A DNA stretch of 47,370 nt from a virus. Taxonomy: Duplodnaviria; Heunggongvirae; Uroviricota; Caudoviricetes. The stretch is from the IMG/VR virus record IMGVR_UViG_3300028888_000003. The stretch is one strand, 5' to 3'. The stretch's first letter is position 1; every line of letters begins with the position of its first letter. Below are positions 1,812 through 2,921 of this stretch, piece after piece. The notes beneath the pieces were generated by a model. That model was given only the letters and a program-made list of their open reading frames with translations. It made no database searches and was not told where the DNA came from. Made by a program: the position numbers and the translations under genes.

Positions 1812-2921
1812 TAACTAAAACAAGACGAAGTAAAATCCTTTAAATTGCGGGAAGTTCCTTAGAGCTTTAATAACTAAGTTATATTAGTAATAATATAATG
1901 GCTTTACAGAAAGAGTAAAGGTATAGTAAAATCATTAAAGATTGGATAATCCGCAGCGAAATTTCTTAATTTTATGTATTCTCTCATTAATAAGGTTACT
2001 TATTTATAGGAGGGATATACAATGGGATATAAAAAATTATCAAAAGAACAAGAATTACAACTAATTGAAGAATATCGTAATGGCGCCAGCGTTAATTCCT
2101 TAATGACTAAATATGGTTATAAAACTAAAAAATCTATAACAGATAAAGTTAAAAAATATTATCCACAAGAATATGAACAAATTATTCAAGAAGCTTAGGA
2201 TAATAGACGAGGATATACTTATTCTCTTGAAAAAATCTCAAATCCTTTTGATGCTTATTTAATAGGTTTATTACTCACTGATGGCTATTTATTAAGCGAT
2301 CGTGATGGTATTGGATTGGATATGTGCGATAAAGATGTTATAGAATATGTTGCTAATAGCATTGGAACTACTTATAAGTCTTATAAATAGTCTGGAAATA
2401 GATAGACTAAATATAGAGTATTAATTACTATTCCAGGTATTCAACAACAAGTTGCTCGTTTTGGAGTTATAAAAGATAAAACACATATAATTCCTAGACC
2501 GCAATTATTAGAAGAAGAGAAAATTTTCATTCCATATATTATTAGAGGAATTATAGATGGCGATGGTTGTGTAACAAAAACATCATATGGCAGTCCTCAA
2601 TTTTATATAGTGACTATGTCAAAAGAATTTGCAGAATGGATACAAGAAGTTTTAATAAAAAATTTATTTATGGAAGATATCCATTTAATTCAAAGACCAC
2701 AAGATCATATATATAAAATTGAAACAGCAAATTAGTTCAATATATTGAAATTAATTGCTATTGTATATGATAAACCTTTTGGTATGAGTAGAAAATTTAT
2801 AGAATTAAGAAAGACGTTCAGAGACTATAATAAGGACTTTCTTATTGAAGAAAATAAGAATGATGGTATAGTCCAGACCCCAACAAATTAAAATTGGCTT
2901 AGGAAACTAAGTGGGGTAAGG
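1812..2921 (+). mobile_element. Group I self-splicing intron with homing endonuclease ORF
   Basis: Core motifs: P AATTGCGGGAA (~1843-1853), Q AATCCGCAGC (1948-1957), R GTTCAGAGACTA (2816-2827), S GGTATAGTCC (2865-2874). P1 is exon TTCGTT paired with GACGAA (1824-1829), giving a U.G pair at the junction. P10 is ACAA (1820-1823) with exon-2 TTGT. P8 is TTCTTATT/AATAAGAA and P9 is CTTAG-GAAA-CTAAG. Terminal G at 2921. Confidence 0.93.
2022..2891 (+). CDS. Double-motif LAGLIDADG homing endonuclease (289 aa, 4 in-frame TAG read as Gln)
   Basis: RBS AGGAGG before ATG 2022. Motifs AYLIGLLLTDGY and YIIRGIIDGDGC. In-frame TAG at 2196, 2388, 2403 and 2733, with TAA at 2889-2891. Absent from the code-11 ORF track. 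Confidence 0.9.

Follow-up and report, generated by a model that had tools for sequence, protein, structure and literature searches.

Can a selfish gene be written in the altered genetic code of a phage when the gene that it interrupts is not? This question is raised by a polymerase locus in IMG/VR virus record IMGVR_UViG_3300028888_000003 (Caudoviricetes), of which we analysed a stretch of 47,370 nucleotides (nt), referred to here as the window and numbered from its first letter. The locus is a dnaE gene for a polymerase of the PolIII alpha type (DnaE), split by an intron of 1,110 nt that contains an open reading frame (ORF) of 289 codons for a LAGLIDADG homing endonuclease. The original prediction, made from the letters of the window, was that the intron gene uses TAG as a sense codon whereas its host gene does not. 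Our analysis bears this out: the endonuclease gene looks intact, its four in-frame TAGs are supported as glutamine codons and dnaE is free of TAG. We conclude that an intron endonuclease dependent on TAG decoding sits in a polymerase gene that is independent of it, and that synthesis of the endonuclease is probably postponed or limited relative to that of DnaE.

The contrast between the two genes holds on recounting. The first of the four TAGs in the endonuclease ORF (codon 59) lies 21 codons upstream of LAGLIDADG motif 1, and the 1,109 spliced dnaE codons within the window contain no in-frame TAG; the part of exon 1 that lies outside the window (within an 833-codon ORF) contains none either. 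Expressed as a share of all glutamine codons, TAG accounts for 4 of 18 in the endonuclease and 0 of 43 in dnaE (one-sided Fisher test, p = 0.006). Relatives with the same intron show a similar pattern, with endonuclease and dnaE shares of 3/11 and 1/48 in G006, 6/15 and 4/66 in G009, and 7/13 and 0/27 in L107; in G008, which uses TAG throughout and shows no such contrast, the shares are 2/13 and 10/45. Enrichment of TAG in the endonuclease over the host gene is therefore seen in four of five lineages (Cochran–Mantel–Haenszel p = 1.3e-4, stratified over the window phage, G006, G009 and G008, with L107 outside the test). In a further relative of about 139.7 kb (L144), dnaE is interrupted a few codons upstream by a different insert (L144:1405-2520), which encodes an endonuclease with GIY-YIG and helix-turn-helix (HTH) domains and two in-frame TAGs, and the exons are again TAG-free; a search of this insert with Rfam gave no group I match. 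Preferential recoding of the endonuclease relative to its host gene is thus recurrent, although not universal.

The window belongs to the complete genome (G000; 139,076 bp with direct terminal repeats) of an SPbeta-like rumen phage in which TAG is reassigned to glutamine. Across the whole genome, the coverage by long ORFs is 0.41 with TAG as a stop and 0.73 with TAG as a sense codon, and no such gain comes from treating TGA in this way. TerL carries 14 in-frame TAGs and a 3,671-codon virion ORF carries 83. On the basis of TerL, the nearest cultured relatives are Geobacillus virus E3 (41% identity) and SPbeta-like phages of Enterococcus and Bacillus, with phAss-1 farther away (35%); the closest sequences to the phage are held in sheep and goat gut metagenomes. 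The genome encodes an amber-suppressor tRNA with the anticodon CUA, which scores 36 bits against the Rfam tRNA model (cut-off of 29 bits) and has the anticodon loop CUCUAAA. This tRNA is G+C-rich, has a non-canonical T-loop (GGCAGCA) and adjoins a tRNA-Leu(UAG). ARAGORN, run with default, intron and low-threshold settings, called no tRNA(CUA) in the genome; its low-threshold intron mode returned many implausible calls, which were disregarded. A tRNA(CUA) is also present in a recoded relative (G015) and was found in neither of two nearly complete standard-code relatives. A search of the genome for a release-factor gene found none.

Several observations support the reading of the four TAGs as glutamine. 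TAG was aligned with standard-code homologues for the endonuclease gene specifically, and among 11 TAG-free homologues CAA or CAG occupies codons 59, 123, 128 and 238 in 3, 6, 5 and 8 sequences, respectively, as had been anticipated for standard-code relatives. In L077, which at 81% identity is the nearest TAG-free copy, these positions read AGA, CAG, CAA and CAA, and three of them thus encode glutamine. In an alignment of 24 sequences, residue 238 is glutamine throughout. Read with TAG as glutamine, the frame is free of TAA and TGA up to its TAA stop at 2889-2891; a run of 289 codons without TAA or TGA has a probability of about 2e-10 at this composition (27% G+C; 0 of 20,000 shuffles). If the four stops had arisen by decay, the chance that all would be TAG is about 0.002. 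The ratio of non-synonymous to synonymous substitution (dN/dS) is 0.10–0.12 for the window lineage, which indicates purifying selection, and a 99%-identical copy from another sample retains all four TAGs while differing at nine synonymous and four non-synonymous sites. Non-glutamine residues at the TAG positions and an absence of purifying selection had been named beforehand as signs of a decayed gene, and the alignment and dN/dS point the other way.

The encoded protein has the features expected of a double-motif LAGLIDADG enzyme. Pfam LAGLIDADG_3 (PF14528) matches in two stretches (E = 2.1e-10; 41 bits, cut-off of 22.5). Motif 1 is LIGLLLTDGY (residues 80–89) and motif 2 is IIRGIIDGDGCV (residues 173–184); acidic residues end both motifs, and D87, G88, D179, G180, D181 and G182 are invariant in 24 homologues. 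An AlphaFold2 model (pLDDT of 79) shows the pseudo-dimeric alpha-beta-beta-alpha-beta-beta-alpha fold and has as its best Foldseek hits I-Tsp061I (E = 6.5e-7; TM score of 0.62 by target), PI-SceI, I-SceI, I-AniI and I-DmoI, and 37 PDB structures match at E ≤ 0.001, mainly LAGLIDADG homing endonucleases and their relatives (including the bI3 maturase and WhiA). The protein resembles the monomeric enzymes I-Tsp061I, I-DmoI, I-SceI and I-AniI and the endonuclease domain of PI-SceI in fold, in its two acidic-ended motifs and in its location in an intron; it differs from them in an identity of only 12–22% and in an additional N-terminal helical part of about 60 residues in the model. A protein database holds 665 homologues, mostly of 285 residues; a search of PDB chains with the endonuclease sequence gave no match, and tblastn against GenBank phages gave a single weak one (36% identity). 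We consider the ORF to be a functional-looking homing endonuclease gene, with cleavage activity predicted from motifs and fold.

Both ends of the intron are defined by relatives that lack it. The insertion point lies within a conserved DnaE motif, between GY(S/G)F and xxxH(T)LAYS, and is the same in all intron-bearing relatives. Ligation of the exons restores the host frame, which then reads GYSF-CRAHTLAYS, and 24 intron-less relatives encode GYSFCRAH or GYGFN.SH contiguously; the predicted exon junction is therefore confirmed, and empty target sites exist. A U (1811) precedes the 5' splice site and a G (2921) is the final intron base, which agrees with the intron-less site put forward earlier (GGTTATTCGTT followed by TTGTAGG). 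The complete predicted site is GGTTATTCGTT joined to TTGTAGGGCT. An intein is excluded, as stop codons flank the insert. A split gene, with two DnaE polypeptides and a free-standing endonuclease between them, is also excluded: the frame of exon 2 is open from 2920, ahead of its first ATG (2968), and the conserved residues CRAHTLAYSFIALQE are encoded upstream of that ATG and abut exon 1 exactly as they do in intron-less relatives.

Contigs from RNA libraries were also inspected. Contig X24, from a bovine library, belongs to a relative of 97% identity and has the two exons fused at the predicted point; it could be a spliced RNA or, equally well, an intron-less allele. At its junction (GTTCAGAGAGGTTATTCATTC followed by TGCCGC...), there are 5 synonymous differences in the 12 nt around the junction and 6 in the next 219 nt (window 2929 onward), and the contig may stem from an intron-less allele with a variant target site. 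None of the RNA-library contigs X2, X21 and X24 skips the intron in the window phage itself. Contig X2 holds the intron, the ORF and pieces of the exons; carry-over of DNA is possible, and the contigs carry no information on timing.

The insert is a mobile group I intron with the endonuclease ORF in its P6 loop, and on the basis of its sequence and covariation it is predicted to splice itself. An Rfam scan of the whole window at the gathering threshold gave no match, and a permissive scan gave a partial match to RF00028 (14.3 bits, E = 1.1), because about 825 nt of leader and ORF in the P6 loop break the model. A relative with an intron of about 320 nt at the shared site, from which the ORF has mostly been deleted (L014), matches RF00028 over its full length (50.6 bits, gathering score of 50; E = 5.8e-10), and its core sequences are nearly identical to those of the window. 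The 5' core was assigned by conservation with the Rfam alignment of L014. P7 is invariant across 17 family members. In P9 and the GNRA hairpin, 98.3% of alignment cells are paired across 17 sequences and 8 pairs show compensatory changes; none of 500 shuffles scored as high, and sliding the partners reduced pairing to 22–38%. Compensatory changes in P6 (1962-1971 with 2803-2812), P8 and P3 are visible by eye across relatives. The last 29 or so codons of the endonuclease frame, which ends at 2891, cross P6', P7, P3', P8, P7' and the 5' strand of P9, and the last TAG lies about 70 nt upstream of P6'. In the part of the ORF that overlaps the core, synonymous divergence (dS) is 0.09–0.5, compared with 1.2–1.9 elsewhere in the ORF.

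Table 1. Features of the dnaE locus and other features of the phage genome. Positions refer to the window unless a genome or contig handle is given.
Feature	Position	Strand	Evidence or content
dnaE exon 1 (PolIII alpha-type; 5' end outside the window; ends ...RVQRGYSF)	1-1811	+	DNA_pol3_alpha 3.4e-53; DNA_pol3_finger 1.3e-13
Group I intron, 1,110 nt	1812-2921	+	Rfam match of L014; covariation; intron-less relatives
5' ribozyme core	1835-1971	+	P3 5' strand 1835-1840; P4 1846-1851 with 1951-1955; P6 5' strand 1962-1971
Predicted hairpin pairing the Shine–Dalgarno sequence AGGAGG (2008-2013) with an upstream pyrimidine run	1969-2028	+	Minimum free energy -16.9 kcal/mol; z = -4.0 against shuffles
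LAGLIDADG homing endonuclease gene, 289 codons	2022-2891	+	Pfam; fold model; dN/dS
TAG codon 59	2196-2198	+	TAG-free homologues: CAA (3), AGA (2), CAT (2), AAA (3), CGC (1)
TAG codon 123	2388-2390	+	TAG-free homologues: CAG (3) or CAA (3), including the nearest, L077
TAG codon 128	2403-2405	+	TAG-free homologues: CAA (5) or AAA (5)
TAG codon 238, in the conserved motif ETANQ(F/Y)NILKLIA	2733-2735	+	CAA/CAG in 8 of 11 TAG-free relatives
3' ribozyme core	2803-2921	+	P6' 2803-2812; P7 2823-2829 with 2867-2873; P3' 2832-2836; P8 2839-2846 with 2853-2860; P9 2878-2882 with 2912-2916; GNRA hairpin 2898-2911
dnaE exon 2, starts (T)TGT AGG GCT CAT = CRAH	2922-4440	+	Pfam HHH_6 6.6e-21
TAG-bearing replication-region genes	5678-5998, 9831-11572	+	
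TAG-bearing replication-region genes	L071:882-3116	-	
Three late capsid-region genes (378, 199 and 464 codons)	37390-40551	-	TAG-free
Amber-suppressor tRNA, anticodon CUA	G000:107086-107157 = L073:3086-3157 (outside the window)	+	Rfam tRNA model
GIY-YIG ORF	G000:82150-83169 (outside the window)	-	9 TAG among 23 glutamine codons
HNH ORF, within a 1,087-nt insert (intron) of tRNA-Leu(UAA)	G000:131857-133030	+	5 TAG among 11 glutamine codons
PD-(D/E)XK ORF (PF11645), within an insert of about 800 nt in another tRNA	G000:134578-135458	+	0 TAG among 13 glutamine codons

To place the window copy among its relatives, family members were gathered both by protein and by conserved ribozyme core, and contigs were classed by gain in coding density and by stops in TerL. 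TAG-bearing endonuclease genes proved to be confined to TAG-recoded phages, as originally predicted. All seven full-length copies on recoded contigs (G000, G006, G008/G011, G009, G016, G017 and G018) contain TAGs, at 2–7 per gene, and none of the approximately ten standard-code contigs (G001/G005, G002/G003, G004, G007, G010, G020, G021 and G023, together with G022, which was classed by locus-level coverage only) contains any. In G014/G015, which are TAG-recoded, the ORF is mostly deleted and a TAG count does not apply.

Copies with TAG fall into at least four separate groups in the endonuclease tree, in which the window copy is nested among TAG-free copies (support of 99/99 and 100/95). TAG positions mostly differ between the groups. 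Immediately upstream of the intron, about 160 residues of DnaE (window about 1330-1811) are of the type found in L001/L132, with 85–90% identity in places, and the remaining DnaE protein is nearer to the L127/L130 type. This mosaic exon flank has the appearance of a tract that was co-converted during intron homing. Given both the nesting and the mosaic flank, the element probably entered the window lineage from a dnaE of standard-code type and acquired its TAGs afterwards. It follows logically that a TAG-bearing enzyme gene would be unable to spread into non-recoding phages, and the direction of transfer that the tree and the flank suggest is from a standard-code phage to a recoded one. As a separate observation, the TerL genes of many relatives (L026-L030; G013, G016, G017, G020 and G021) are in two to four pieces that lie about 0.2–2 kb apart, suggesting further introns in late genes.

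Use of TAG elsewhere in the genome does not follow a simple division into blocks. Among the replication genes, the non-selfish genes with in-frame TAGs include a glutaredoxin-like gene (2), a dUTPase gene (1) and a 245-codon ORF of unknown function (3); further accessory genes on the replication strand are those for a Dam methylase (3), an SLT transglycosylase (2) and a SieB-like protein (6). Code use is therefore set gene by gene. Three late genes of the capsid region are TAG-free and their late neighbours are TAG-dense; avoidance of TAG is thus not confined to early genes, and it may track expression level or decoding efficiency. The three other endonuclease ORFs listed in Table 1 likewise vary in their TAG content.

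How would the four TAGs affect expression of the intron gene? The phage tRNA(CUA) would read them as glutamine. Without suppression, translation halts at codon 59, ahead of both catalytic motifs, and the product ends at residue 58; synthesis of the full-length enzyme thus requires suppression to be active at that time and place. Translation of the polymerase exons is independent of suppression, and synthesis of the endonuclease would most likely be delayed or limited relative to that of DnaE. Moreover, because the last 29 or so codons of the ORF run through P6'–P9, the TAGs could shield the ribozyme core, keeping ribosomes off this part of the precursor RNA until suppression is available. If suppression becomes effective only later in infection, as we infer, both the enzyme and ribosome traffic over the core would be restrained while DnaE is first needed. 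The late control of homing envisaged in the original prediction would be a consequence of this timing.

A second form of control may act on the same gene. The predicted hairpin over its Shine–Dalgarno sequence would provide translational control like that of T4 I-TevI, independent of recoding. Comparable hairpins at the ribosome-binding site are predicted in four relatives (z of -3.0 to -5.1), including the standard-code L001, L005 and L011; RNAalifold gave no consensus hairpin at the ribosome-binding site over 11 divergent aligned sequences. Given that the hairpin is also predicted in standard-code copies, gating by TAG would be an added layer and not the sole one. A scan for promoters and terminators was uninformative, with 9 sigma-70-like sites compared with 9.1 expected from shuffles, and identified no late promoter ahead of the ORF; the scan used a sigma-70-like consensus, which may not be the late promoter type of this phage.

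A number of our own observations weigh against delayed or limited synthesis of the endonuclease as the meaning of the TAGs. The TAG-free capsid-region genes indicate that avoidance may depend on how strongly a gene is expressed or how efficiently it is decoded, TAG is also found in ordinary accessory genes of the replication set, and the PD-(D/E)XK endonuclease ORF of the same genome carries none. In L006/G008 (G008:30982-36011), the dnaE exons themselves contain TAG, in one case at the conserved glutamine of ALQEMN, so that not every member of the family divides its codon use between early and late genes. An ORF that runs through the core is also the arrangement in standard-code relatives, without TAGs, and TAGs are therefore not needed for a workable layout; the hairpin, too, is predicted in copies with and without TAGs. 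The late timing of suppression is something that we infer and on which the RNA-library contigs are uninformative. Finally, all of the counts are compatible with drift in a gene whose product is not required early. We regard such neutral drift, in which CAR codons turn into TAG in genes that are not required before suppression or at a high level and the contrast reflects constraint on dnaE, as rather unlikely, although much is compatible with it: ordinary late and accessory genes have TAG shares of 0.1–0.9 among their glutamine codons, a span that includes the 0.22 of the endonuclease, the methylase, transglycosylase and SieB-like genes of the replication strand have accumulated TAGs, TAG positions vary between lineages, highly expressed late genes avoid TAG and one endonuclease ORF lacks it altogether. 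Truncation at codon 59 without suppression would remain under drift as well, and enrichment over the host gene in four of five independent lineages, together with a second endonuclease family at the same site, counts against drift. The opposite extension of delayed synthesis is that the TAGs are positively selected 'code gates', which arise repeatedly soon after the intron moves from a standard-code to a TAG-recoded phage and mainly benefit the host gene, because stops read under the host code would hold ribosomes off the P6'–P9 core and allow early splicing, with the endonuclease made later, once suppression sets in; we consider this possible but doubtful. Such gates would achieve through the genetic code what the 'better late than early' rule describes for I-TevI.

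Other readings concern the protein itself. That the TAGs are true nonsense mutations in a decayed endonuclease gene might be suggested by the standard reading (table 11), which splits the frame into pieces of 58, 49, 41 and 48 codons, and by degraded copies in relatives (L012 is frameshifted and L014/L015 retain only 48 codons). This has a negligible probability and is ruled out by the open frame, a dN/dS of about 0.10, the conservation of all four TAGs in the 99%-identical copy, the alignment of TAG with glutamine codons, the invariant catalytic motifs and the recoded genome with its tRNA(CUA). It is very improbable that the protein is chiefly an intron maturase, like bI3 and in part I-AniI, and not a DNA endonuclease. 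Foldseek places the bI3 maturase and I-AniI high among its structural matches (ranks 2 and 12), but the acidic residues that end the motifs are invariant, L014/L015 keep a conserved ribozyme without the ORF, and the sporadic distribution and many empty sites fit active homing; a suppression-dependent maturase would also delay the splicing of a replication gene the exons of which avoid TAG. Equally far-fetched is a two-product gene, in which a 58-codon N-terminal helical and possibly DNA-binding fragment has a role of its own before suppression (for example, in site protection or repression) and the full enzyme follows. A TAG occurs at codons 57–59 in three independent recoded lineages, where the N-terminal four-helix part meets the LAGLIDADG core, and the DNA-binding domain of I-TevI is an autorepressor (PMC2988022); however, positions 57 and 59 are often glutamine in the family, so that coincidence of TAGs is to be expected, no TAG lies there in the L091/L103/L107 lineage, and no family matches the N-terminal part significantly (HTH_28, E = 0.15). 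Taken against these alternatives, an intact endonuclease with delayed or limited synthesis is the reading that we prefer.

The original prediction held that such an arrangement had not been described; this is contradicted by two studies, and the idea of an intron endonuclease gated by the genetic code is already published for other recoded phages. In TGA-recoded Agate phages, an early gene harbours a group I intron whose endonuclease is preferentially recoded (Borges et al., bioRxiv 10.1101/2021.08.26.457843, section 8), and in-frame stops should block its production until late (Borges et al., bioRxiv 10.1101/2021.08.26.457843). In crAss-like phages, PolB is split by group I introns with ORFs that contain suppressed TGA (Yutin et al. 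2021, PMC7886860, Fig. 7c). The window phage shares with the Agate phages a self-splicing (here, predicted) intron in an early or replication gene and preferential recoding of its endonuclease. It differs in that TAG encodes glutamine, in contrast to TGA for tryptophan, in an SPbeta-like phage of the ruminant gut; in that the host gene serves as the direct reference for the contrast, which recurs in at least four to five lineages, with two endonuclease families at one dnaE site; and in that the ORF overlaps the ribozyme core. The Agate work reportedly appeared later in Nature Microbiology, in 2022. With the crAss-like PolB genes, the locus has in common a polymerase gene split by a group I intron and an ORF that needs suppression; there, PolB exons and intron ORFs both carry TGA, no contrast between intron and host was drawn, and the phages belong to another order (Crassvirales).

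Intron endonucleases are also expressed late in T4, in which translation of I-TevI and I-TevII, as well as of I-TevIII, is held until late by late promoters and a hairpin that sequesters the ribosome-binding site (PMC2988022); according to Gibb and Edgell 2010, going by its title in the reference list of PMC2988022, delayed translation of I-TevI is needed if splicing is to be efficient. The T4 introns are in early or middle genes of nucleotide metabolism, and a hairpin at the ribosome-binding site is predicted in the window too. Unlike the system considered here, T4 relies on late promoters and RNA structure and not on the genetic code, and its enzymes are of the GIY-YIG or HNH type. The phAss-1 paper (PMC10607447) describes TAG-recoded gut phages of about 136 kb with PolIII alpha and, in some genomes, a LAGLIDADG endonuclease. 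The window phage resembles them in genome size, polymerase type and the presence of TAG in TerL and tail genes; introns and TAG use by the endonuclease are not discussed in that paper (PMC10607447). New here are a TAG-to-glutamine instance in an SPbeta-like ruminant phage, the direct comparison with the host gene, the pairing of standard-code and recoded relatives, the evidence that TAGs were acquired repeatedly and independently, and an ORF that overlaps the ribozyme core.

The locus provides a statistically supported example, with TAG as glutamine, of a selfish element whose expression depends on the code change of its phage. For the annotation of such phages, it implies that the genetic code should be assigned per gene and not per block, and that ARAGORN can miss a suppressor tRNA. 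Because one intron family is found in both standard-code and recoded relatives, these phages form a natural comparison set, which could address whether recoding acts as a gate on timing or dosage, whether it eases the conflict between ORF translation and ribozyme folding, and how quickly an element takes up new codons after transfer.

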